Source: Escherichia phage cardinal
Length of the DNA: 64,000 bases
Strand: one strand, 5' to 3'
Sequence record: PQ567651.1
Shown one piece after another: positions 14,543 through 49,491 of the stretch. Position 1 is the first letter of the stretch; every line of letters begins with the position of its first letter. Below the pieces are notes generated by a model. That model was not told the origin of the DNA, did no database searches, and worked only from the letters and a program-made list of their open reading frames with translations. Position numbers and translations under genes: made by a program.

Positions 14543-15000
14543 TTACACCTCTCATTAGTAGTTTGTTATGCGCGATATTGCATATTTTATGGAACACAGT
14601 GTACAGACATTTCTATTCAATGCAAGCATTATTTGCATCTTATAAATTTACGTCTCATGCCACACATCATACAGCGTCTTTTCATCTATTACAAGAACAG
14701 CAACCTAGGAACATCATTAATGGAGGGATTAGTATAGGGATTAGTATAGGATTTCCCTATCAATTATTCTATATATACCTAATATTTTTAACACACCCCT
14801 TTGTACATAATATAGACAAATAAATATCTATGCCACAAAAATTTTCTGGTATACCCGATTTATTTCGACACACCCCCTTTTCATAAGCGTAAAGTCAATA
14901 ATATCAATAACTTGCCGCAAAATACTGCTCGCTTGCGAGAGGTGCTTAACGCGATTTTCAGCGCCCCCCCGATTTCTGCCGACCGTCCCCCTCAAATATC

Positions 15001-15779: not shown

Positions 15780-16203
15780 TATGGAATGATTACTACATGA
15801 AATGGTTACTGTATGAAATGATTATCTAAGTAATAGATAGGAAGGTAAAGATTAGATCATAAATAGATAGGATGTGAATTATTTAGTAATGTTACTAACA
15901 ATTTAATAGTTACTTTGTGCAACAATTCGATAGATTATAATTGTAGTTTTAAGGGTTAGATAGATTATATTTAGCTTAGTAATGATTTATATTAGTTATT
16001 ATTGTTTAATACAATGTTATCAATGAGATAGTAACAGTAAGTTATAAATAAAGGTGAGATAATTAGTTTTAATTTAGTTAGATAACTTATTATTTTATAG
16101 GTTAGATGGTCTTAAGTTAAGAATGATTCTCATTATTGCATTATGCAATTTATTGCATAAATAATCAGCTATAAATAAGAATGATTATCATTTAAGAGGA
16201 AAG
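15780..16203. repeat. AT-rich iteron-like region with Fur-box-like sites near 3' end
   Basis: repeated tagatag(g) and atgaaatg(g/a)tta motifs; agaatgattctcattattgc and agaatgattatcattta near 16120-16203. Confidence 0.5.
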
Positions 16204-16402
16204 ACAAGAAAAAGGCTGTTTTTGCCAGGTAATTACATGAAGAAATTAAAAATAAGCGGTCTAAAACACGTTGTAAGCGCCTTATGATCTTCATGGTATG
16301 GTTGTTCATCTGCTCCTTGATTAGCTCGATACCGCGATCTATTCACTTTTTTCGGTGAACGTTTTTGATAGGTAAAAGCTATCATCTTTATTTAGGTAAA
16401 AA

Positions 16403-16430
16403 GAAAGGGCGCAATAAGCGCCCTTGTTTG
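16403..16430 (-). terminator. hairpin terminator after gene 16440-16811
   Basis: aagggcgc-aataa-gcgccctt plus T-run on minus strand. Confidence 0.5.
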
Positions 16431-16439
16431 AAATGTTAT

Positions 16440-16811
16440 TTACTGATAAGCTGGATCGTTTGTTATATCAATCCAATGAGATAAATTAATTTTATTTTTT
16501 GCTTTCATTTTCTCGATCAAACGTTCGGCTAATGTTTCTGAACGAATATAAACATGCTCGCTAAAATCTTGCCCCGTTTCTTCGTCGATCATTTCTCTAT
16601 ATTCAACCTTGCCGATAAACGCATAAGTTTTACCCGTGTACCAGTTATGTAAATGGATCTCGCATTTATAATCATCGCTATACCCTTCGGTTGTTCTAAC
16701 TTCAACCAAGTCACCTTTAAACACTGATAAGCACCACATAGGATCACGATCTACAGCGCCGTTAAAATCTTTACCGTTTACAGTAGCCGCCAGGTTGATG
16801 ATATTGCTCAT
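16440..16811 (-). CDS. hypothetical protein
   Basis: 123-aa ORF with GAGGAA RBS. Confidence 0.55.
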   Translation of the reverse strand: MSNIINLAATVNGKDFNGAVDRDPMWCLSVFKGDLVEVRTTEGYSDDYKCEIHLHNWYTGKTYAFIGKVEYREMIDEETGQDFSEHVYIRSETLAERLIEKMKAKNKINLSHWIDITNDPAYQ

Positions 16812-16886
16812 GGTGATTCCTCGTTTACCGTTTAAAATGATTTGCCCTACACGATAACTATAAGTTAACAGAGGCTATAAAGCAAG

Positions 16887-17117
16887 TTATTTTTCAAAAA
16901 ATTTTTCTACTGTGATATTCTTCCCAGTGGGATTAGCTACTTTCAAAATTTTATCATGTACTGGACGCCCAAAAGAATAAGATCCGTATACAGTAAACCA
17001 ATAATCACCGTCAGGCTGTACTATCACCGCTGCATAGGGTACGCCTTTTTCGTTATTGCTGACAGAATAGATCACATTGCCGTTAATAGCTTCAGCGCGT
17101 TTAATTTGTTCGATCAT
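16887..17117 (-). CDS. hypothetical protein
   Basis: 76-aa ORF preceded by promoter/stem-loop cassette. Confidence 0.55.
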   Translation of the reverse strand: MIEQIKRAEAINGNVIYSVSNNEKGVPYAAVIVQPDGDYWFTVYGSYSFGRPVHDKILKVANPTGKNITVEKFFEK

Positions 17118-17134
17118 GATATGATTCCTATATT

Positions 17135-17195
17135 GAGCGGGAAACCACTTCCCGCCTTACGTGATACATCTTAGTATAAGGGCGATCCGGTGTCA
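17135..17195 (-). promoter_or_regulatory. promoter + 5' stem-loop cassette
   Basis: minus strand: TTGACA-N17-TAAGAT then GGCGGGAAGTGGTTTCCCGC hairpin before RBS. Confidence 0.6.
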
Positions 17196-17317
17196 ATAGG
17201 TAGAATTGTAAAGATTTGATAGTTTATTTCTTTGATGTTTTGTTATTTGATAGGTGGAAGCTATCAATATATAATAAGATCGTCCGGTGATTATCTTCCC
17301 CTGCTCCCAGGTGCCGC

Positions 17318-17352
17318 CCGTTCAATAAGCATAACAAAAAACAGGACAAAAA
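17318..17352 (-). terminator. hairpin terminator after gene 17373-17576
   Basis: acagg...cctgt stem followed by T-run on minus strand. Confidence 0.4.
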
Positions 17353-17372
17353 CAAGCCCTGTTTTGTAAAGA

Positions 17373-17576
17373 TTAGATGATCTGCATATCCTCCACGATA
17401 ATTTCTAATTTCCAAACAAGATGATCTAAGCTCCCTGATAAAAATGATTCCGATACATAACCGCCATCTGACACCGTAGCAAGGATCTCGCCATTTGCTT
17501 GCTCTTTGATTTGAACATCCAGGCGGTTAGCCTTTGCTTTATTCAGGACGGCGATCAGGCGGTTAGCTGTAGTCAT
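17373..17576 (-). CDS. hypothetical protein
   Basis: 67-aa ORF with GGAAGGAAA RBS. Confidence 0.5.
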   Translation of the reverse strand: MTTANRLIAVLNKAKANRLDVQIKEQANGEILATVSDGGYVSESFLSGSLDHLVWKLEIIVEDMQII

Positions 17577-17590
17577 GGTGTTTTCCTTCC

Positions 17591-17654
17591 AGTTGTGAGC
17601 GGCACTATTGCCGCCCTACGAAATACATTCTACCCGATTTATAATTGTTGTCAA
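17591..17654 (-). promoter_or_regulatory. promoter + 5' stem-loop cassette
   Basis: TTGACA-N16-TAGAAT then GGGCGGCAATAGTGCCGCTC hairpin. Confidence 0.55.
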
Positions 17655-17655
17655 A

Positions 17656-17925
17656 CTATTTTTTCAAGCTCGACCAGTCAAAACACGGGGCGATCTCGTT
17701 AAAACTTGTACCATGTAAAGCACATAATTTTTTAGCAATAGCCGCCGTAACCTGGCGTTGTACGCGCGGATCTGCTACTGATTGGAGAAAATAGGCGGTT
17801 TTATATGTGATCATGCTTTCGCCTGTTTCCTTGTTAACGTGGTGCACGGTTTTAGCCTTATCATCTTTTACCAGGGTGTAACCGGATTCGATGGCCTTGA
17901 TTGCAACGTCCAAAGATATTTTCAT
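17656..17925 (-). CDS. hypothetical protein
   Basis: 89-aa ORF. Confidence 0.5.
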   Translation of the reverse strand: MKISLDVAIKAIESGYTLVKDDKAKTVHHVNKETGESMITYKTAYFLQSVADPRVQRQVTAAIAKKLCALHGTSFNEIAPCFDWSSLKK

Positions 17926-17972
17926 GATTTACCTCTTTATTGACGGCGGGGAATACTCCCCCGCCTTATTAA

Positions 17973-18143
17973 TTACTCTTCATCGTCGCCGTTATAGTAT
18001 TCAATGCCGTTTTCATCGGTTACAGTAATGTTAACGCCACCGATAGCAACACGATCACGGGCAAACGTCATGGCTTCATTTAAATCTTCAGACCAAAAAA
18101 TATTGTGACCTTTGCGCGATACATAAAACATAGTTGGGATCAT
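17973..18143 (-). CDS. hypothetical small protein, 56 aa
   Basis: ATG after cassette at 18166-18226; not in track. Confidence 0.45.
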   Translation of the reverse strand: MIPTMFYVSRKGHNIFWSEDLNEAMTFARDRVAIGGVNITVTDENGIEYYNGDDEE

Positions 18144-18165
18144 GATTTGTTTCTCTTCTGTTGTG

Positions 18166-18226
18166 AGCGGGAAACCATTTCCCGCCCTATGTGATAAACT
18201 TTACTACGTTGTTTGCCTAGTGTCAA
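18166..18226 (-). promoter_or_regulatory. promoter + 5' stem-loop cassette
   Basis: TTGACA-N17-TAAAGT then cacatag-GGCGGGAAATGGTTTCCCGC. Confidence 0.6.
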
Positions 18227-18227
18227 A

Positions 18228-18512
18228 TTATTTTTTAATGTTTTGCCCTACAAAATTGATCACTTCCTTAAGCTGTTTCTCAGTCATGATCGTGCCTGGT
18301 AATTCTTCTTTGATTTCTTCCGGTAGATAGATATTACCGCGCCAGGTTAATAAACAACCGTTTTGATCTTCGCAGATAGAATAAGAGAAGATCCACTCAT
18401 TATCATTCTCAAGCTCCCAAAAGCACAAAAAATCTTCTTTCCCTAAATTTTCAACGGTTAAACATAATCCGCGACGTGCTGCATAGTTGGAAAGTGCTTT
18501 TGTGATCTTCAT
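18228..18512 (-). CDS. hypothetical protein
   Basis: 94-aa ORF. Confidence 0.5.
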   Translation of the reverse strand: MKITKALSNYAARRGLCLTVENLGKEDFLCFWELENDNEWIFSYSICEDQNGCLLTWRGNIYLPEEIKEELPGTIMTEKQLKEVINFVGQNIKK

Positions 18513-18532
18513 AGCTTATCTCTTCTGTTAAG

Positions 18533-18594
18533 GCGGGGAAACCATTTCCCCGCTCTATGAGATACAATATACTATCTGTTAGGTGTGCTGTCAA
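18533..18594 (-). promoter_or_regulatory. promoter + 5' stem-loop cassette
   Basis: TTGACA-N17-TATATT then GCGGGGAAATGGTTTCCCCGCC. Confidence 0.6.
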
Positions 18595-18918
18595 TCAATA
18601 ATCTTTAAGATTTTCTACATTTACAAAAGTGCGTTTATTTTCTAAGTTTTCGCCGTACCATTGCCCCATGTTGATTTCTGCGGTGCGCAACCAGGACATG
18701 CCGCGCTCTATCTTTTTACTTGCAATCTCGATCCGGCTTTTGCATAGTGCTTTCGCTTGCAATGTAAAAACACTATTGCCCTGTAATGCTTCCAGGTCAT
18801 CATGTGCAAGGCGATACTCTTTAAAGCCTGATTCTATCATTTCAATAGCATCAAGTAAACGCGCGCGATGATAGAAAAAATCAGAGTTATCCAAATAAAC
18901 ACCGATCACAGATTTCAT
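18595..18918 (-). CDS. hypothetical protein
   Basis: ORF from ATG (MKSVIGVY) with AAAGGG RBS. Confidence 0.5.
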   Translation of the reverse strand: MKSVIGVYLDNSDFFYHRARLLDAIEMIESGFKEYRLAHDDLEALQGNSVFTLQAKALCKSRIEIASKKIERGMSWLRTAEINMGQWYGENLENKRTFVNVENLKDY

Positions 18919-19247
18919 AATTTTACCCTTTTGTTTGCGGCCTTTGCCGTTTTCAAGATATAGTTTAAAGCATAACAAAAAATTGTCAAGCCTTTAAAGC
19001 GTACAACTATAAAACCTATTAAAACACAATGTATAACAACATGGCTATAGTAGCAATACAACATAAAGCCATGCTTGTTTTCCTTCCTTCCTCGTATGCT
19101 GGATTTATTACGCTATATTGTACGGGAATAATTTTCATGCTGTTTCCTTAATGTCTTAAAACGTGGTTTACAATAGAAACAAGCATACAGAAGAAAAAAG
19201 ATCCTGTCAATAAGATACCGAAAAATAAATGTAAATAGGGCATGGTT

Positions 19248-19550
19248 TTACTCCTTAAAAAAATCATTGACAATTAAACTGATAACGCCCAGCACCAGAT
19301 CACCAGGTAGTGCCGCGCTTTCGTTGTTGCTTGTTTGCACTTCCTCACTAGTACCAGCACGATAGATTGCATGGTAAGCAATAGTATAATAACCTTTCGT
19401 TATTTCTTTAAGATTAATGATTAGCACGTTATTTGTTTCATCTTGAAACAATTTAGCGGTGATAGTATTGTTTTCTTTTACACTATCGACTTTTATTGAT
19501 GGATCATTTACACCAGAAAAAAGAAAAAACGTTTTAGCTATGCCGTTCAT
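19248..19550 (-). CDS. hypothetical protein
   Basis: 100-aa ORF with AAGGAGA RBS; TTGACA-N15-TATAAG upstream. Confidence 0.5.
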   Translation of the reverse strand: MNGIAKTFFLFSGVNDPSIKVDSVKENNTITAKLFQDETNNVLIINLKEITKGYYTIAYHAIYRAGTSEEVQTSNNESAALPGDLVLGVISLIVNDFFKE

Positions 19551-19597
19551 GTAGTTCTCCTTTGTTGTGTGTATCTTATAACGTGCTTTCTATGTTG

Positions 19598-19999
19598 TCA
19601 ATCTTTTATCTCGGTGCATTTTGCCAGGGTATACGTTGCAAGTGCTGACACTAGTTTTTCATTGCTACGATCTGCGGCTGTACTGTGTACTTTTTGAATA
19701 CTTTTTAACCACGGCGTAAAATTTTGAGTAGTCAGCACACTGGTAATAATTTCACATGGCACATCTTCATTTAAGCCGTTAACAATAGATTTATCTATTT
19801 TTGCCGTTAGTTGTGTAACAGCACCATAAGCGATCATGTGTGAATCCTCCATGATTTCATCGGGGATCGCATTATTAATAAGCATGACGTTTTCCATTGC
19901 ATCAACGGCGCTTAATTCTGCTACTGTGGAGGATATCGCCGCGCTAGATGTTCCAACCATGCCAAAAGAGATTAAACCAGCGATCAATAATTTTTTCAT
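19598..19999 (-). CDS. secreted/periplasmic hypothetical protein
   Basis: N-terminal signal peptide MKKLLIAGLISFGMVGTSSAA. Confidence 0.55.
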   Translation of the reverse strand: MKKLLIAGLISFGMVGTSSAAISSTVAELSAVDAMENVMLINNAIPDEIMEDSHMIAYGAVTQLTAKIDKSIVNGLNEDVPCEIITSVLTTQNFTPWLKSIQKVHSTAADRSNEKLVSALATYTLAKCTEIKD

Positions 20000-20007
20000 T
20001 TCTTGCC

Positions 20008-20190
20008 TCATATATGTTTTATTGAGATTATATTGTCACTATATACAACGTTTTTCAACGTGTCAATAAAAATCTTATTGCCTTCAATCCCCAGGATCAC
20101 GCCGCTAGTTATGAAGCCATATTGATCACGATATCGGGCGCATAACCTTTGCCCCTGGGCTAGTGCCTTGCTTATTTCGTCTAATTTCAT
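20008..20190 (-). CDS. hypothetical protein
   Basis: 60-aa ORF with AGGAG RBS. Confidence 0.45.
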   Translation of the reverse strand: MKLDEISKALAQGQRLCARYRDQYGFITSGVILGIEGNKIFIDTLKNVVYSDNIISIKHI

Positions 20191-20283
20191 TTTTAAAGCT
20201 CCTGTAAAGCCGTCTAACGTTGATTTATAGGCTTATCCTGGCGTTACCATTGCCTATGGGTAACAAGCCTCTATATAAGCTAA

Positions 20284-20308
20284 AAGGGCGCTTATTGCGC
20301 CCTTTTTT
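20284..20308 (-). terminator. bidirectional hairpin terminator
   Basis: gggcgc-ttatt-gcgccc flanked by T-runs on both strands. Confidence 0.5.
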
Positions 20309-20309
20309 G

Positions 20310-20447
20310 TTATTCGTTCCAGTATCTTTTTGTGCTGCGATCTCTTTTTGTTTTGTTCCGCTTGTCGCCTTTTTTGGTGATCTCTTCGTTCCAATTTTTA
20401 CGCGCCTTGCTGCGGTTGAATTTTTCGATCTGCTGTGATGCGTTCAT
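20310..20447 (-). CDS. very basic small protein, 45 aa
   Basis: MNASQQIEKFNRSKARKNWNEEITKKGDKRNKTKRDRSTKRYWNE; AAGAGGAAG RBS. Confidence 0.4.
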   Translation of the reverse strand: MNASQQIEKFNRSKARKNWNEEITKKGDKRNKTKRDRSTKRYWNE

Positions 20448-20462
20448 GTTTCTTCCTCTTAA

Positions 20463-20822
20463 TTACGCCACGTTATGCTGTTTTGCCAGGATTACGATCA
20501 TGCTTGCAATATATAACCAATAATTTTCCCGCTCACGGGTAACGGTTGTTTCTTTGCTTGTTTCTTTTATGTACTTCCATTCAATTAACAAGTGATCGAT
20601 CTCGTTATAATCAAAAGCAATATTGATTTCTGACGGTAAACCTTGTAACCAGGAGGCTATCGCCTTGATCATGTTGTGATTGTAACGTTTTTGATTATCG
20701 GGATACCAGTATTCAGATGTAAAACGGCGCATCAGTTCGGTGATCTTTTCTTTTTCTGTTGTAGTACCCTCAAAAGAAATAGCCGACACAATGTAAGTTT
20801 TAATTGCTTTTACTGATTTCAT
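20463..20822 (-). CDS. hypothetical protein
   Basis: 119-aa ORF. Confidence 0.5.
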   Translation of the reverse strand: MKSVKAIKTYIVSAISFEGTTTEKEKITELMRRFTSEYWYPDNQKRYNHNMIKAIASWLQGLPSEINIAFDYNEIDHLLIEWKYIKETSKETTVTRERENYWLYIASMIVILAKQHNVA

Positions 20823-20842
20823 AATCTTATCTCTTTATTGTT

Positions 20843-20901
20843 GGCGGGAAACCATTCCCCGCCGTTGTTGTTACTTTACTTATAAATGATGCTACTGTCA
20901 A
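20843..20901 (-). promoter_or_regulatory. promoter + 5' stem-loop cassette
   Basis: TTGACA-N17-TAAAGT then GGCGGGGAATGGTTTCCCGCC. Confidence 0.6.
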
Positions 20902-20908
20902 ACGGATA

Positions 20909-21079
20909 TTATTTGTTTTTTAACGTTAATGTTCCCAGCTTATCAGCGTGACGCAGACCAGGAAAGATCCATTTTCCTGATTCATCTTTTACCGGGGCTT
21001 TAAGCGTAGCGCCCAGGTTGGCGGCATTAACTTTACGTGCAACGTTGCGAGCGGCTTCACGGGTAGCGAAAGTGATCAT
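20909..21079 (-). CDS. hypothetical small protein, 56 aa
   Basis: AAGAGGAAAA RBS; not in track. Confidence 0.4.
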   Translation of the reverse strand: MITFATREAARNVARKVNAANLGATLKAPVKDESGKWIFPGLRHADKLGTLTLKNK

Positions 21080-21103
21080 GATGTTTTCCTCTTCTCTTTG
21101 TTA

Positions 21104-21165
21104 GGCGGTGGGCTATTCCACCGCCTTGATGAATACAGTTTACTTTATTTTTGCAGTATTGCAAG
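21104..21165 (-). promoter_or_regulatory. promoter-like + 5' stem-loop cassette (variant)
   Basis: GGCGGTGGAATAGCCCACCGCC hairpin with TTGCAA-N16-TAAACT upstream. Confidence 0.45.
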
Positions 21166-21170
21166 CGGTT

Positions 21171-21386
21171 TTATGAAATAAATGTCAAAGTAAAATCATA
21201 ATCTTTTGACAGTTTATATTGCACCTTGTTACCGTATATGTCACCTTTACGTAAAGATCCGCGAATACCTATTACATCCTTTACATCTTTAAGATTTTTC
21301 ACGCCTGTAATGTCTTTATTGAAATGATCGTGATCAGAAAATAAAACCTGCTTTGCATTTTTTAACAGTGTGCGGATATTAGCCAT
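21171..21386 (-). CDS. hypothetical protein
   Basis: 71-aa ORF. Confidence 0.5.
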   Translation of the reverse strand: MANIRTLLKNAKQVLFSDHDHFNKDITGVKNLKDVKDVIGIRGSLRKGDIYGNKVQYKLSKDYDFTLTFIS

Positions 21387-21405
21387 TTGATAATCTCTCT
21401 TACTA

Positions 21406-21464
21406 GGGGCGGCACTATTGCCGCCCTATGCATTACATTTTACTGATTTTAGTTATCTTGTCAA
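21406..21464 (-). promoter_or_regulatory. promoter + 5' stem-loop cassette
   Basis: TTGACA-N16-TAAAAT then GGGCGGCAATAGTGCCGCCCC. Confidence 0.6.
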
Positions 21465-21472
21465 TATTATTT

Positions 21473-21700
21473 TTAGTTTAATTGATCCAGGCACAACAAG
21501 CGATCAACATTCAGATCGGTTAGGCTAATCGTTGGCACCTGGTAGGATTCGATGTACTCAACGCTCGACCATTGCCCGAAGTTAGCGACCGCCCAGCTAT
21601 TCAAGGAAGAGTGAAGATCATCCCCTTTCTTCTCGGTGATAACTGCTACTACCTGGGAGCTTCCAACCGTACCGGATACGCGAACAATAACGATAGCCAT
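21473..21700 (-). CDS. hypothetical protein
   Basis: 75-aa ORF. Confidence 0.5.
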   Translation of the reverse strand: MAIVIVRVSGTVGSSQVVAVITEKKGDDLHSSLNSWAVANFGQWSSVEYIESYQVPTISLTDLNVDRLLCLDQLN

Positions 21701-21721
21701 AATGATAACCTTTCTTTGATT

Positions 21722-21781
21722 TGGCGGGAAACCATTTCCCGCCCTATGTGATATATCTTACACTAATTTAAAACGTTGTCA
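21722..21781 (-). promoter_or_regulatory. promoter + 5' stem-loop cassette
   Basis: TTGACA-N16-TAAGAT then atatcacatag-GGCGGGAAATGGTTTCCCGCC. Confidence 0.65.
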
Positions 21782-21877
21782 AATTATTTTCTATTTCTTC
21801 CGTAATAGCCCAATTTATGATCTAAGCTAAAACGTTTTGTGAGATAGGTCGAACGATGTTTCATTTTTATGTCTCCT

Positions 21878-22117
21878 TTACATTCCAACCATAGCGGCAC
21901 GGATCGCGGTTTTACTGAACTTGAATCCGTCTGGCGTTTTATCTTGATCCATACTTTCAAGAAATAACATCATATCCCGCGCTGCGTCATTCTTATTGGT
22001 GTTAGCTGCGATAAATTCACGCGCAAGATTATAAAAACCTTCATCGTTGTTGATCCAAAGGCTTACATTCCAATGAGTTTTGTTTTTGTGACCTAAGAAC
22101 ATTTTAGATTTAGCCAT
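21878..22117 (-). CDS. hypothetical protein
   Basis: 79-aa ORF. Confidence 0.5.
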   Translation of the reverse strand: MAKSKMFLGHKNKTHWNVSLWINNDEGFYNLAREFIAANTNKNDAARDMMLFLESMDQDKTPDGFKFSKTAIRAAMVGM

Positions 22118-22140
22118 GATGTTAATCTCTTTTTCAGTGA

Positions 22141-22199
22141 GGCGGGAACTATTCCCGCTCTCGATATAAGTATTATATGCTTTTTATTCGTGCTGTCAA
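22141..22199 (-). promoter_or_regulatory. promoter + 5' stem-loop cassette
   Basis: TTGACA-N16-TATAAT then GCGGGAATAGTTCCCGCC. Confidence 0.65.
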
Positions 22200-22205
22200 T
22201 GCTTT

Positions 22206-22571
22206 TTATAAATCTTTTTTACGTTTAACATCGCTTGCATGACTGTATACAGCGATCCCATTATCACGGCAAAAACGGGAAAGATACGCGCCGCGTGAAA
22301 ACTCTTTGCCCTCCAGGTTGATAACCTTGCTAAACTCTTCCAGGGCGACGGTATCAAAATGATCCCCATAACCATATTGAAACGGAACGTTAACGACTTC
22401 AATCAGTTTACCGCCGATCTCAACGTCAACCATCAAAGAGAAATAAGTATTACCATAAGACTTTTGAAACCAGCGACGGGCGCTAATATGTACCGCTTCA
22501 ATGCTGGATAGTTCAATTTTAGCAGTGTTAGCCAGGGTAGCATAAGCAGAAACATTGATATTTTTAGCCAT
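22206..22571 (-). CDS. hypothetical protein
   Basis: 121-aa ORF with AAAGAGA RBS. Confidence 0.5.
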   Translation of the reverse strand: MAKNINVSAYATLANTAKIELSSIEAVHISARRWFQKSYGNTYFSLMVDVEIGGKLIEVVNVPFQYGYGDHFDTVALEEFSKVINLEGKEFSRGAYLSRFCRDNGIAVYSHASDVKRKKDL

Positions 22572-22666
22572 AGTCTTTAATCTCTTTTGATTAGTTAGGA
22601 GTATTCCCGATAAAAGTTATTATGCTTGTACTATCGTTCGTTGTCAATAGCACAAGACTAAAACTT

Positions 22667-22846
22667 TTAACGATAATCATCATAGGCTTTATTGACCTGG
22701 CGAATATAGCATTCAAAAGCTAGATCAATAGATTTATATTCACGGATATAATCACCATAGGAAACCACATACATTTCTATAGCTTCCTCATATGCCAGGA
22801 TGATAGAATCTAAACCTACGATCTCAGTCTTTGCAATAATAGCCAT
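22667..22846 (-). CDS. hypothetical small protein, 59 aa
   Basis: ORF downstream of cassette 22934-22989; not in track. Confidence 0.4.
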   Translation of the reverse strand: MAIIAKTEIVGLDSIILAYEEAIEMYVVSYGDYIREYKSIDLAFECYIRQVNKAYDDYR

Positions 22847-22933
22847 GCTTTTATTCCTTAGTAATGTTTCAATCTATATAAGCATTATAGCTTACTGATT
22901 TCAGGTGTCAAGTGATTTTTTATTTCACCTTAT

Positions 22934-22989
22934 GGGGCGTTGCCCCGCTTTATGTGGTACATATTACGGGGCTTGTTCGCATATGTCAA
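22934..22989 (-). promoter_or_regulatory. promoter + 5' stem-loop cassette
   Basis: TTGACA-N17-TAATAT then GCGGGGCAACGCCCC. Confidence 0.55.
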
Positions 22990-22992
22990 GCC

Positions 22993-23547
22993 TTACACAA
23001 GACAATTTTCATAATTTTTTAGGGCTTGTCTTTTTTCCTCTTCCGTCGGCATGTATGGCTGGATCTCTTCCTCTTCCAGGGTAGGCATGATTTCTTCCTC
23101 TTCCTCCTGGTCGTCCTGGTCTTCCTCTTGCGCTACTGCAACAAGTTTATTGATCTTCTCCTGGGCTTTAATCAATTTTGCATCTAGCACCATTTTAGCG
23201 GTGTTGTATACCGTCCATGCCATGCGTTTTTCTTCGTATGCTTTATCTAGTGCGGCTAATTTAGCGGGATACTCTTCCAACACCTTAAAAGCCGGATCAA
23301 TGCTGTATAAGGGATTATTTTTAGCGTCATCGCTTGGATCTGCGGCGCTTGCAATGTCAGCGTTGCCATTCGCCAGCCATCCAGGGCGAACGGATCGCGC
23401 CTTTGTGTTGCCGTTGCTCTTTGCCGCTCGATTTCCTATCTGCTCCCCGCTATACCCTACCATGTGATCGATCATGTCATCTGGTATTATGCGCGGATCA
23501 TTAGCGTCATGCTTTACCCAGGACTGGATCACATATTCACGCCCCAT
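22993..23547 (-). CDS. hypothetical protein with acidic C-terminal tract
   Basis: 184 aa; QEEDQDDQEEEEE run. Confidence 0.5.
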   Translation of the reverse strand: MGREYVIQSWVKHDANDPRIIPDDMIDHMVGYSGEQIGNRAAKSNGNTKARSVRPGWLANGNADIASAADPSDDAKNNPLYSIDPAFKVLEEYPAKLAALDKAYEEKRMAWTVYNTAKMVLDAKLIKAQEKINKLVAVAQEEDQDDQEEEEEIMPTLEEEEIQPYMPTEEEKRQALKNYENCLV

Positions 23548-23809
23548 GTTCGTTCGCCTCTTCTGTTAGTAGTTTACATACCTTAAACATGCTTGCCGCG
23601 TCTTTTGACGGTAGCCAGCCTATGCGATACACTCCAGGATCTGGATTCGTTATATCTGTTAATTGAGCGTTACGATGATTAAAAATAGTGTAACCGCCGC
23701 CAGCACGGGGATAAACATTATCTTTAAACCTGATAGCGTATCTCGCCAGGTTGAACGTTGTAGCATGTTCAAAAGCGATCACATTATCAAAAACTTTTAG
23801 AAAAAACAA
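23537..23809 (-). CDS. hypothetical protein
   Basis: 90-aa ORF, GGGGAGGA RBS. Confidence 0.5.
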   Translation of the reverse strand: MFFLKVFDNVIAFEHATTFNLARYAIRFKDNVYPRAGGGYTIFNHRNAQLTDITNPDPGVYRIGWLPSKDAASMFKVCKLLTEEANEHGA

Positions 23810-23976
23810 GATTATCCTCCCCAGCGTTTAAAGCCCGTTGCACGGTTATTTTTTAACTCTCGTTTTAGTCTCTTGCAACGGTTTACAAGTGCAAACCGTG
23901 CCGGAGTGGTAACAGTAGCGCCGTTTTTGGTGTGAATACTCATTACATATTGTTTCATAAAGTTTTATCCTATGTA

Positions 23977-24030
23977 AGCGGGAACTATTCCCGCTTTAAG
24001 ATAGCTTATCAGGTTTTAGTGCAATGTCAA
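23977..24030 (-). promoter_or_regulatory. promoter + 5' stem-loop cassette
   Basis: TTGACA-N16-TAAGCT then GCGGGAATAGTTCCCGCT. Confidence 0.55.
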
Positions 24031-24036
24031 CCGTTT

Positions 24037-24399
24037 TTATTCGTAAATTTTACCGCTTTCTACCCATACCATAACGCGGCGCATATTATCCCATGCATCT
24101 TGTCGCAGATTTAAGGCATGCAATTCTTCGGTTGTGCTCATACCTGGTACGGGCTTGCTATATGTTACAAAGAGATCGCCAGCATATTCATAAGCCAGGG
24201 TAAGATCACATTGAATCATCTTTTTAAGCATAGCATTAAGCATCATATTAGCGGCATGTTGATCACGTTTTAGCGGTAGCGTTGCGATCTGTGAGCGATA
24301 GCTTTCGATCCGTGCATCCACTGCATCACGTGGAAGATTTTTCACGTCGTCGCGGAAAGATACCAGGTTTAACATGATAGTATTGATTTGCTTGCTCAT
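24037..24399 (-). CDS. hypothetical protein
   Basis: 120-aa ORF. Confidence 0.5.
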   Translation of the reverse strand: MSKQINTIMLNLVSFRDDVKNLPRDAVDARIESYRSQIATLPLKRDQHAANMMLNAMLKKMIQCDLTLAYEYAGDLFVTYSKPVPGMSTTEELHALNLRQDAWDNMRRVMVWVESGKIYE

Positions 24400-24424
24400 T
24401 GTGTTACCCTTTCTTTGATGGCCT

Positions 24425-24484
24425 GGCGGGAAACCATTTCCCGCCCTATGTGATACATCTTATCAGATTAAAAAACGTTGTCAA
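24425..24484 (-). promoter_or_regulatory. promoter + 5' stem-loop cassette
   Basis: TTGACA-N16-TAAGAT then gtatcacatag-GGCGGGAAATGGTTTCCCGCC. Confidence 0.65.
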
Positions 24485-24503
24485 GAATATTTTTTAGATA
24501 ATT

Positions 24504-24785
24504 TTAACTATATGATCCACATTGTTCGCAGTAGTGATCATCGTCGCCATCAGCTACCTGGCTGATAAAGTGATCTACTTTTGCTTTTAGGTTATTATAA
24601 TTGTTTTCTACTTCCTTTAATCGCTCCTGATAGTAGCCCAGGGCTTTAATATACGCCGCCTCTTCTGTTTTTTCACGCATGGCTAAATTCATGCCGCGCG
24701 TATCATCATACAGCCAAAAGCCATCGGTACATTCACTCATTGAAAGGGTAGGGCTTAACTCTTTATGATTAATTACCTTGCTCAT
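24504..24785 (-). CDS. hypothetical protein
   Basis: ORF; C-terminal CEQCG motif; start uncertain (24785 or 24818). Confidence 0.45.
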   Translation of the reverse strand: MSKVINHKELSPTLSMSECTDGFWLYDDTRGMNLAMREKTEEAAYIKALGYYQERLKEVENNYNNLKAKVDHFISQVADGDDDHYCEQCGSYS

Positions 24786-25169
24786 AGTGTGCGCCTTATA
24801 GAATGATTGAAACAACAATTGCTACAGTGATCCACACTGGAACGGCTAACAAAATAGCGTTAATCGTTCCAACCGTCAAGCTGTTTTCTTTCTTGATCAT
24901 CGTTATCAACCTTTTATAAGTAATGTTATTGTGACGGTGGATTGTGGAGATCCTCACCTTTGCCCGTCCTGCATTGCGCCCTCCTTTTGTTTATTGTCGT
25001 TGTGCCTCGCCCCCCTCGACAAGATGAATAATACGCTACCAGGTGAGGAACGTCAACCCCTTTTTTAATCTTTTTTTCATTTCTTTTTTTTGCTTGCTAT
25101 CTATAAAGGAAAGGGCTATTATCTTTCTACCACGCCAACCAGGGCGCACATCAAAGAAAGGGCGATACC

Positions 25170-25436
25170 ATGACAAATACTACTTTACACCTCATGCACT
25201 CATTAGGCTGGCAAGGCGGCACGGTGCACCAGGTAGCAAGCGCAACGGGCTTAAAGGTTGAAACCGTTCTCAACCTGGGCGATCATAAGGTGGAAGAAAT
25301 AGATCATTTTGATACGTTCGCAAATGGTTATCTATGGGCTTGCAGTGGCGGCGGGGAAAGCAAGATCCCACCAGGGGCGCGGGGTGATATATATTTTTGG
25401 TTAGGTGTCCTATCCTGGCAAGAAAACAAAAAATAA
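25170..25436 (+). CDS. hypothetical protein
   Basis: 88-aa ORF with AAAGAAAGGG RBS; TTGCTA-N17-TATTAT upstream. Confidence 0.45.
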   Translation: MTNTTLHLMHSLGWQGGTVHQVASATGLKVETVLNLGDHKVEEIDHFDTFANGYLWACSGGGESKIPPGARGDIYFWLGVLSWQENKK

Positions 25437-25437
25437 T

Positions 25438-25472
25438 ATTGACAAGCCCAGGGATCGGGCTTATACTGTTTT
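25438..25472 (+). promoter_or_regulatory. sigma70-like promoter with palindrome in spacer
   Basis: TTGACA-agcccagggatcgggct-TATACT; spacer is an inverted repeat. Confidence 0.55.
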
Positions 25473-25586
25473 ACATACAGAAGAGGAAGCGCCACCCCCA
25501 CGGCGTAAAGGCGGGGCTAACATACCAGGGCACTACTGGTTGGAAGGTTGATCGCTGGTACAACGTATTTACAAAGGAGGTTAGCA

Positions 25587-26180
25587 ATGAAAAAAGTTTT
25601 TGGAGTAGGCATTAACGATAGTGCAAAGCCGATCAAAGGTTGTCGATTCTATGCAACATGGCGCAACATGTTACAACGTTGTTATAGTGAATCATATCAG
25701 GACAAAAGGCCATCTTATAAAGGTTGTAGTGTTTGTGATGAATGGTTGACGTTTAGCACTTTTCGTGCTTGGATGGAACAGCAGGATCACCAGGGAAAAC
25801 AATTAGATAAAGATATAATAACACCGGGTAATAAACTCTATTGTCCTGATCGTTGCGTATTTGTAACGCAAGAAATGAATAGTTTGTTAACAGTTACAAA
25901 GAGTAACAAAGGGGATCATCCTTTGGGTGTTTCATTTTTGAATCATAAACCATTGCCGCGCCCTTATTTAGCAACAATACGTTATAATAACGTAGTGGAA
26001 AGATTAGGGTACTATGTAGATCCTTTATCCGCTCATTTGGCCTGGAATAGGCGCAAACGTGAAATAATCATAGAGATTATTAGTAATGAAACGGATTCAA
26101 GGATCGCCGCTGGCTTGGCTTTACGTGTTGACGCTCTCGATCTGGCTTATGAAAATAAAGCGGAAATAACTTGCTTATGA
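25587..26180 (+). CDS. putative homing-endonuclease-like protein with AP2-type DNA-binding domain
   Basis: N-terminal YATWRNMLQRCY...CDEWLTFSTFRAWM and AP2-like YLATIRYNNVVERLGYYVDPLSAHLAWN; AAAGGAGG RBS. Confidence 0.4.
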   Translation: MKKVFGVGINDSAKPIKGCRFYATWRNMLQRCYSESYQDKRPSYKGCSVCDEWLTFSTFRAWMEQQDHQGKQLDKDIITPGNKLYCPDRCVFVTQEMNSLLTVTKSNKGDHPLGVSFLNHKPLPRPYLATIRYNNVVERLGYYVDPLSAHLAWNRRKREIIIEIISNETDSRIAAGLALRVDALDLAYENKAEITCL

Positions 26181-26184
26181 CGCT

Positions 26185-26217
26185 TGACAAGCGCCCGACA
26201 AGGGCGCATAATCTCTT
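26185..26217 (+). promoter_or_regulatory. sigma70-like promoter with palindrome in spacer
   Basis: TTGACA-agcgcccgacaagggcg-CATAAT; gcgccc...gggcgc inverted repeat. Confidence 0.5.
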
Positions 26218-26435
26218 ACATAGACAGGAACGCCTACCAATGGCGCTAAACTTGGTGATGATAGCCGCAGGGCATCGACAGCTATAATCGCCGGTAGCTC
26301 GTCTAAAATAAATTTGTAAAGAAATGTAAAGATAAAAATAATCGCTTGCTTTTGTTGTTGGTTATGCTATTCTTATTGTATGGCGAGGGGACACGGGAGC
26401 GCGAGACAAACACCGCCCCTGCGCGTTATTTTCTA

Positions 26436-49414: not shown

Positions 49415-49491
49415 TTGACTTTCTTTAAAAACAGTTTATAGTATAAGACATAGAGCGGAGGATTGTCCTCCGCATTAAAGAGGAGAAAAGA

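Follow-up and report, generated by a model that had tools for sequence, protein, structure and literature searches.

Why are so many small minus-strand genes of Escherichia phage cardinal (sequence record PQ567651.1) preceded by what looks like one and the same unit of promoter and hairpin? The window analyzed here is the whole stretch of 64,000 nt, and the block under study is its minus strand at 17.1-24.5 kb. A preliminary description had pointed to a repeated unit of promoter, hairpin, ribosome site and ATG ahead of the small genes, and re-measurement bore this out: the block carries 11 cassettes of about 80 bp each, composed of a near-consensus sigma-70 promoter and a GC hairpin. These units are probably expression cassettes of the promoter-early stem-loop (PeSL) type in a phi92-like phage. 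Judging from comparison with relatives, they are also crossover points for the gain, loss and replacement of genes, a property absent from that description.

The elements follow the same order in all 11 cassettes, namely an A-rich stretch, the -35 element, the spacer, the -10 element, the start region, the GC hairpin, an A-rich leader and the ATG. An AnAAAA consensus lies upstream of TTGACA (alignment A1). As first described, the -35 element is TTGACA (10 of the 11 copies; TTGCAA in the one at 21164) and the spacer measures 16-17 nt; the -10 elements match 3-6 of the 6 positions of TATAAT, and A2 and T6 are always kept. The start region often reads (T)ATCACATAG, and the form (atat)CACATAG proposed for it earlier holds in part, exact CACATAG being found in three copies and variants in the remaining ones. 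The gap between the -10 element and the hairpin is 9-13 nt in 10 of the 11 cassettes; the exception is cassette 24030, in which the core stem lies about 6 nt past the -10 element, so that the stem begins at about +1 and ACATAGG sits after the hairpin. The stems comprise 7-10 bp, RNA folding predicts that the hairpin is the dominant structure (-12.8 to -18.7 kcal/mol), and the distance from the core hairpin to the ATG is 17-25 nt. The leader is A-rich and unstructured, with a purine-rich ribosome site followed by the ATG of the small gene. The hairpins fall into about five classes: besides GGCGGGAAATGGTTTCCCGCC (class A), these are GCGGCAATAGTGCCGC, GCGGGAATAGTTCCCGC, GCGGTGGAATAGCCCACCGC and GCGGGGGAGTATTCCCCGC. 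The consensus GGCGGGAAATGGTTTCCCGCC given in the preliminary description therefore fits the class A hairpins, which are only one class of about five. The cassettes, referred to below by their upstream coordinate, are as follows:

24400..24484 (-): cassette, TTGACA-16-TAAGAT with extended -10 TG and CACATAG; hairpin 24445-24425, class A; ATG 24399, 120 aa
23959..24030 (-): cassette, TTGACA-16-TAAGCT; core hairpin 23996-23976, class C, within an extended helix 24002-23967; ATG 23958, 48 aa
22118..22199 (-): cassette, consensus TTGACA-16-TATAAT; hairpin 22162-22139, core 22158-22142, class C; ATG 22117, 79 aa, DUF7249
21701..21782 (-): cassette, TTGACA-16-TAAGAT, CACATAG; hairpin 21743-21723, class A, exact consensus; ATG 21700, 75 aa
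21387..21464 (-): cassette, TTGACA-16-TAAAAT; hairpin 21426-21407, class B; ATG 21386, 71 aa
21080..21164 (-): cassette with the weaker -35, TTGCAA-16-TAAACT; hairpin 21126-21103, class D; ATG 21079, 56 aa
20823..20901 (-): cassette, TTGACA-17-TAAAGT; hairpin 20863-20843, class A with a G.U pair; ATG 20822, 119 aa
18513..18594 (-): cassette, TTGACA-17-TATATT; hairpin 18553-18533, class A with an extra G-C pair; ATG 18512, 94 aa
18144..18226 (-): cassette, TTGACA-17-TAAAGT, CACATAG; hairpin 18187-18165, class A; ATG 18143, 56 aa
17577..17654 (-): cassette, TTGACA-16-TAGAAT; hairpin 17614-17599, class B; ATG 17576, 67 aa
17118..17196 (-): cassette, TTGACA-17-TAAGAT, CACGTAAG; hairpin 17155-17137, class A variant; ATG 17117, 76 aa

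The genes driven by these cassettes belong to PHROGs or DUFs without known function. The array is real and lies far above chance: compared with 200 dinucleotide shuffles, the 7.4-kb block holds 13 GC hairpins (shuffled mean 0.44), 18 promoter-like sites (mean 3.9) and nine strict promoter-hairpin pairs (mean 0.01), and the 21-nt consensus was found at five sites with at most three mismatches as compared with none in 100 shuffles.

What is it in the hairpin that has been kept? In all classes the base of the stem, GCGG/CCGC, is invariant and the inner stem is variable. Position 5 of the stem is occupied by G-C, C-G, U-A or A-U, and at positions 6 and 7 both arms likewise vary. The MAFFT alignment of the hairpins (A2) was inconsistent with the structure, and pairs were counted on base-anchored stems (alignment A3), in which 96.8% of the cells are paired compared with 42-61% when the partner columns are slid, the former value being biased upward by ascertainment, as the set had been gathered with a hairpin finder. 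Alignment A3, and hence these figures, include two non-cassette hairpins, one of them with a gap; the result for the family is independent of them. Because several different stems occupy the same place relative to the promoter, the sequences as compared here show that pairing is conserved rather than one particular sequence. Among class-B copies, ATGG is present in five of five in Phapecoctavirus DIJ07P1 and ATAG in all but one of the Justusliebigvirus copies read, a split that points to concerted evolution of paralogous copies.

The preliminary description had likened the units to promoter-associated stem-loops of large virulent phages, and they do match the PeSLs of T4-like phages (PMC2839356, PMC4122927). 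PeSLs were defined in RB49/phi1 as small cassettes that combine a strong sigma-70-like promoter with a stem-loop and separate the small, functionally uncharacterised genes of hyperplastic regions; the position of the stem-loop distinguishes five subclasses, one of which has it downstream of the -10 element (PMC2839356). Arbiol et al. (2010) reported promoter activity, terminator-like activity (one stem-loop, lacZ reporter), crossovers within units and mini-circles (PMC2839356), and similar PeSL sets, with "degraded" copies near indels, are known from PST/T4 and nt-1/KVP40 (Comeau et al. 2014, PMC4122927). Every sequence-level feature of PeSLs is found in the window cassettes: (i) an AT-rich stretch, a near-consensus sigma-70 promoter, a GC-rich stem-loop, a Shine-Dalgarno sequence and an ATG follow one another in less than 100 bp; (ii) the units form dense arrays among small genes of unknown function in a variable region, where non-essentiality is suggested by presence and absence only; (iii) close relatives differ by indels, replacements and gene displacement, with crossovers inside units; (iv) degraded "half" copies occur; and (v) the stem-loop lies downstream of the -10 element, as in one PeSL subclass. 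There are also differences. The window phage is not T4-like, being a member of the Stephanstirmvirinae, and the layout is found in Vequintavirinae as well. The stem-loop of the block lies 9-13 nt past the -10 element (10 of 11) and is predicted to be transcribed, whereas in RB49/phi1 it lies mostly between -35 and -10 or over the -10 element, and in PST and nt-1 upstream of the promoter. The base of the stem is invariant GCGG/CCGC instead of poly-G/poly-C. Among open-access publications, with the phi92 genome paper (PMC3457257) outside the search, no report of such units in rV5-like or phi92-like phages was found, and the rV5 paper with its Table S4 lists promoters and terminators and no association between promoter and hairpin. 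Within the literature searched, a PeSL-type array appears to be undescribed in this lineage.

Over 7.6 kb around the block, the window is 95-98% identical to many Justusliebigvirus isolates, e.g. ESCO9, Paula and AV123, which identifies the window phage, by its sequence, as a Justusliebigvirus (phi92-like, Stephanstirmvirinae). Gene content of the block varies among nine relatives, and breakpoints were located by blastn of window positions 15.5-26 kb against these nine. Of 19 distinct breakpoints in the block, 10 fall inside cassettes and 16 within 15 nt of one, though cassettes cover 17.5% of the block (permutation p = 2e-4 for the former count; the latter was reached in none of 10,000 permutations). 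This enrichment is confounded, as nearly all intergenic space is cassette; selection for intact genes alone could therefore place the surviving breakpoints there, and individual cases of exchange are more telling.

Several such cases show, at the level of the sequences compared, crossovers within units between relatives, including other genera and another subfamily. At cassette 24484, all nine relatives break at 24470, within the promoter spacer, and the window cassette consists of the promoter half of one cassette of relative L008 joined to the hairpin, leader and gene of the next (junction CACATAGG/GCGG), the two being separated in L008 by a 358-nt module. Homology segments overlap at this cassette and at 22199, as is expected where one window cassette matches two copies flanking a relative's insert; between the promoter and the hairpin of 22199 there is an extra small gene in both A145 and VEcB_OZ, but not the same one. 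The hairpin of cassette 18226 is class A in the window and class B in relative L007, with flanks that are 100% identical. At 21164 (L007:666-685) and 24030 (A145, L010 minus strand) the loops are inverted, the flanks being identical but for one base: within 21103-21126 and 23976-23996 the changes are GGAATAGCCC to GGGCTATTCC, and TAG to CTA. Small hairpin-associated inversions of this kind are known from chloroplast DNA. Found between near-identical flanks, the inversions show, so far as these loci can be read, that loop orientation is not essential.

Whole units come and go as well. The unit at 22572-22839 is missing in phi92, VEcB_OZ and UAB_1, and an 87-nt indel (21791-21877), which adjoins the upstream edge of cassette 21782, is missing in phi92, A145, EC_OE_11 and UAB_1; a 26-codon open reading frame (21784-21863, -) is held by this indel. 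Nernie has a breakpoint at 21152/21178 (cassette 21164) and phi92 one at 18150 (cassette 18226), cassette 17196 has breakpoints at 17154, 17192 and 17212, and at cassette 17654 the breakpoint is at 17574 in seven relatives and at 17648 in another. The gene driven by the last of these (17373-17576, -, 67 aa) is, together with its terminator, missing in most Justusliebigvirus relatives, and it is 98.6-99.5% identical in Phapecoctavirus nepoznato and Vequintavirus 241Ecol014PP (loci L017 and L018). Each of the three phages has it behind a promoter of a different kind, and two leaders occur among them, with the junction at the hairpin; in Vequintavirus 241Ecol014PP the gene that is its downstream neighbour in the window is placed upstream of its homologue. 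As far as the three sequences go, this points to a recent exchange between subfamilies.

How would such a unit work? Host RNA polymerase, in its unmodified form, would be able to use the near-consensus sigma-70 promoter as soon as infection begins. If transcription starts, as predicted, 6-8 nt past the -10 element, the gap of 9-13 nt would place the hairpin about 0-7 nt from the 5' end of the primary transcript, and in read-through transcripts it would be intercistronic. In these positions it would impede the decay from the 5' end that depends on RppH and RNase E (or, once the transcript has been processed, the action of 3' exonucleases), and it would shield the ribosome site from the influence of sequence further upstream. 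Ending 17-25 nt ahead of the ATG, it would reach the edge of the ribosome footprint and the A-rich leader would stay open. RppH and RNase E both require a single-stranded 5' end, which accounts for stabilising 5' structures (PMC3997798). Because the hairpin is predicted near the 5' end, these enzymes need a single-stranded 5' end and the leader is predicted to be open, the most likely RNA role of the hairpin would be that of a stabiliser and insulator. The stem-loops in the 5' untranslated regions of ompA and papA, which stabilise E. coli mRNAs (Emory, Bouvet and Belasco 1992, reviewed in PMC3997798), are comparable in that a stable hairpin stands at or near the 5' end (here a predicted one), upstream of an accessible ribosome site; they belong, however, to single genes whose transcripts have had their 5' ends mapped and their half-lives measured, whereas the window units have predicted 5' ends and form a repeated, recombining family. 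On the DNA level, the repeated units would serve as portable homology for the recombination machinery of phage or host, by which modules of promoter, hairpin, leader and gene could be reassorted without breaking genes.

The block and the region beyond it also contain units that depart from the complete layout:

22847..22989 (-): tandem promoters, 22989-22961 with a weak 5-bp hairpin 22947-22933, and a consensus promoter 22911-22884 without hairpin; ATG 22846, 59 aa
22572..22647 (-): promoter unit, TTGACA-17-CATAAT with a decayed hairpin remnant CGGGAATACTCC, 22608-22597; ATG 22571, 121 aa
19551..19601 (-): promoter, TTGACA-17-TAAGAT, without hairpin; ATG 19550
18919..18989 (-): promoter, TTGACA-16-TAAACT, with only a 4-bp hairpin CGGCAAAGGCCG; ATG 18918
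17926..17972 (-): promoterless hairpin unit, hairpin 17965-17945, class E; ATG 17925, 89 aa
25439-25467 (+): promoter with hairpin in its spacer, TTGACA-AGCCCAGGGATCGGGCT-TATACT, beside the block
26184-26212 (+): promoter with hairpin in its spacer, TTGACA-AGCGCCCGACAAGGGCG-CATAAT, beside the block

By eye, the remnant at 22608-22597 is the leftover of a flipped class-E hairpin. The promoterless hairpin, which had been placed at 17943-17968, is indeed present with boundaries corrected to 17965-17945; it begins 7 nt past the upstream stop codon and ends 19 nt ahead of ATG 17925, and the same promoterless arrangement was found in relatives L006 and L007. The two plus-strand promoters, each with a 6-bp GC hairpin within its 17-nt spacer, resemble the commonest subclass of RB49. 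One of them, 25439-25467, reads on the minus strand as a terminator with a U-tract. The other ends a 726-bp segment (25561-26286, +) that is missing in all nine relatives compared; the 197-aa protein encoded at 25587-26180 (+) matches the HNH endonuclease family phrog_953 (E 2e-81), and the segment is likely a homing-endonuclease insertion.

Several of these observations weigh against the proposed role, as do the confounded breakpoint enrichment and the upward bias of the pairing value. The hairpin is not required for expression, because five promoters of the block lack a strong one (22911, 19601 and 18989, together with the weak copy at 22989 and the decayed remnant at 22647). The promoterless copy, conserved in relatives, cannot be a primary 5'-terminal structure. 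From the -10 gap, 0-6 unpaired 5' nucleotides are predicted, and a start 6-8 nt past the -10 element would leave 3-6 of them in most copies, so that protection may be partial. On the sense strand, G.U pairs exceed A.C mismatches (15 versus 6 variants), a weak excess among variants that are not independent. A literature search found no transcriptome study of this phage group, and the 5' ends are predicted ones. Two further roles were rejected on general knowledge: processing by RNase III, for which stems of 8-10 bp are too short, and a lambda/HK022-type antitermination RNA, since a single short hairpin is unlike the two-stem put elements.

Are the hairpins, then, terminators? The preliminary description had concluded from the lack of U-tracts that they are not. 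The observation itself stands: each cassette stem is followed by 0-3 T per 8 nt and by A-rich sequence, which makes the hairpins a poor fit to intrinsic terminators, and a scan of the minus strand for terminators listed none of the cassette hairpins. The conclusion cannot be asserted in this form, because the PeSL authors measured terminator/attenuator activity of one stem-loop. They proposed a terminator or attenuator role. Placed between a strong promoter and lacZ, the PeSL211/210 stem-loop reduced expression about as much as rrnB T1 (PMC2839356). Applied to the window, the proposal would have the hairpins limit read-through from tandem promoters by stopping or attenuating transcripts initiated upstream. 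It agrees with the position of the cassettes directly past upstream stop codons, and it could coexist with the stabiliser reading. With intrinsic terminators the hairpins share an intergenic position and a GC-rich stem, and automated tools label some copies terminators; unlike them, all copies lack a U-tract on the sense strand, where the sequence past the stem is A-rich. Moreover, the hairpins lie downstream of their own promoter, so that an efficient terminator would halt that promoter's transcript too. Unit ends in the same block are served by canonical terminators, with which the cassette hairpins may be compared:

20282..20306 (bidirectional): canonical intrinsic terminator inside the block, AAAAGGGCGC-loop-GCGCCCTTTT, with U-tract
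17338..17365 (-): canonical intrinsic terminator with U-tract, past gene 17373-17576

We therefore regard the terminator/attenuator explanation as unlikely, though it is the one among the alternatives that fares best.

A second alternative is that the palindrome or hairpin is the recognition site of a specific protein, which might be a phage repressor or RNA-binding protein by which early genes are shut off, or else a structure-specific enzyme (nuclease or recombinase) that directs gene exchange to these sites. The base GCGG/CCGC, constant in every copy while the inner stem varies, would suit such a site, and so would the fixed position at about +1 to +25, which is typical of an operator; the PeSL authors speculated on such a protein. 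Stability alone, however, would also select GC pairs at the base of a stem, and no candidate protein was identified here. In addition, inner stem and loop differ among the five classes and have been swapped or flipped at a single locus in viable phages, which argues against sequence-specific recognition beyond 4 bp. The explanation is accordingly improbable. The same low credence attaches to a bolder form, in which the GCGG/CCGC hairpin would be the target of a dedicated phage factor (a nuclease or recombinase specific for structure, or a regulator that binds RNA) and the array an integron-like capture-and-expression system for early genes; the cassette would then be a recombination currency common to Vequintavirinae and Stephanstirmvirinae and not a passive substrate of homologous recombination, a notion that we likewise hold to be improbable. 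Like integron cassettes (attC) and morons, the window units involve small genes of unknown function that are gained and lost as units beside a conserved folded repeat and bring their own expression signals. Unlike in integrons, no integrase or other site-specific recombinase was identified here; the exchange seen in the window resembles homologous recombination or gene conversion between repeats of about 80 bp, and morons are independent of conserved flanking repeats.

Might the repeats have no function of their own, being promoters that spread by duplication and gene conversion with a palindrome hitch-hiking along? The concerted evolution suggested by the ATGG/ATAG split among paralogous class-B copies would follow from this, the flips of the loop are tolerated, and some promoters work without a hairpin. 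Nevertheless, one stem position has stayed paired in four different base-pair forms, the distances to the -10 element and to the ATG are tightly constrained, the architecture persists in two subfamilies, and the promoterless copy is conserved, so that an array without function appears still less probable than a recognition site.

Termination of antisense transcription on the plus strand, as the record of phage Paula (LR865361, L001) would have it with "terminator" features on that strand at seven hairpins matching window cassettes, is very unlikely: the promoterless copy (17945-17965) is terminator-like on the plus strand, followed by TTATTAATTA, but it alone passes the terminator scan, the plus-strand sequence past most copies is CCTATGTGAT with few T, and the sole good promoter-like site on this strand (17247-17275), directed rightward into the block, lies below all hairpins except 17137-17155, leaving little antisense transcription to stop. 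The features in the Paula record are probably an artefact, namely unreviewed output of a prediction tool. The site at 17247-17275 (+) is itself strong (TTGATA-17-TATAAT) and is situated in about 140 nt of non-coding sequence (17197-17337) between the terminator 17365-17338 and the next cassette.

How far does the PeSL-type layout extend? When copies were sought beyond the block, one more full cassette was found in the window:

49415..49491 (+): extra full cassette, TTGACT-16-TATAGT, GACATAGA; hairpin 49455-49473 (GCGGAGGATTGTCCTCCGC), AAAGAGGAG; ATG 49492

The gene at ATG 49492 encodes a 325-aa membrane protein, a homologue of phi92 gp182 (phrog_7180), which the phi92 record labels as a tellurium-resistance membrane protein. 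The relative OZ035770 (whole genome, three loci) has its GCGG-type promoter-hairpin units confined to one 8.3-kb block in a single orientation, with one additional unit outside it that is the counterpart of the window's copy at 49.4 kb. In phi92 the counterpart of the block is gp226-gp248, small genes oriented toward the right terminal repeat, and over these the record annotates ribosome sites only, with no promoters and no terminators. A 91-nt cassette query matched 136 phage records, of Justusliebigvirus and Phapecoctavirus and, with partial matches, of Vequintavirus. The same layout recurs at about 5 of the 16 strong promoters that the rV5-like phage JEP1 has in the homologous region. An exact-match scan of IMG/VR with the 21-nt hairpin gave three loci on two contigs, which serve as examples and are too small a number for a survey. 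No copy of the cassette was found in E. coli genomes, and host mimicry and prophage origin were therefore rejected. Rfam 15 gave four sub-threshold matches over 16000-26000, none at the gathering score of its family; two of them overlap with cassettes, but in the wrong orientation or across a longer stretch, and the other two fall on the canonical terminator.

Two side observations concern the surroundings of the block and the records compared. The right end of the phi92 record (terminal repeat) aligns as far as window position 14947, within the region around 14640-14947, and the assembly of one relative has about 730 additional bases at window position 14641; the genome probably has its physical end, or else a collapsed terminal repeat, near 14640-14947, just downstream of the cassette block. 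Two records, MG065645 ("Campylobacter phage A145", L010) and MG065689, are flagged UNVERIFIED and named after Campylobacter, yet they are classified as Justusliebigvirus and are 94% identical to the block, and their host label is doubtful.

For annotators these results carry a caution, as hairpins of cassettes have been labelled terminators on the wrong strand. For engineering, the units would be compact expression modules with natural insulation, comprising a strong promoter, a 5' hairpin and an open ribosome site, and may prove useful as parts and as landing sites. For the biology of these phages, they carry the PeSL idea, in which a small regulatory cassette serves for the expression of accessory genes as well as for their exchange, beyond T4-like phages and into the rV5/phi92 supergroup, whose members are widely isolated for phage therapy. 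The exchanges described here are sequence-level cases of exchange at the cassette between genera and between subfamilies, and they help to explain the mosaic early-gene regions.

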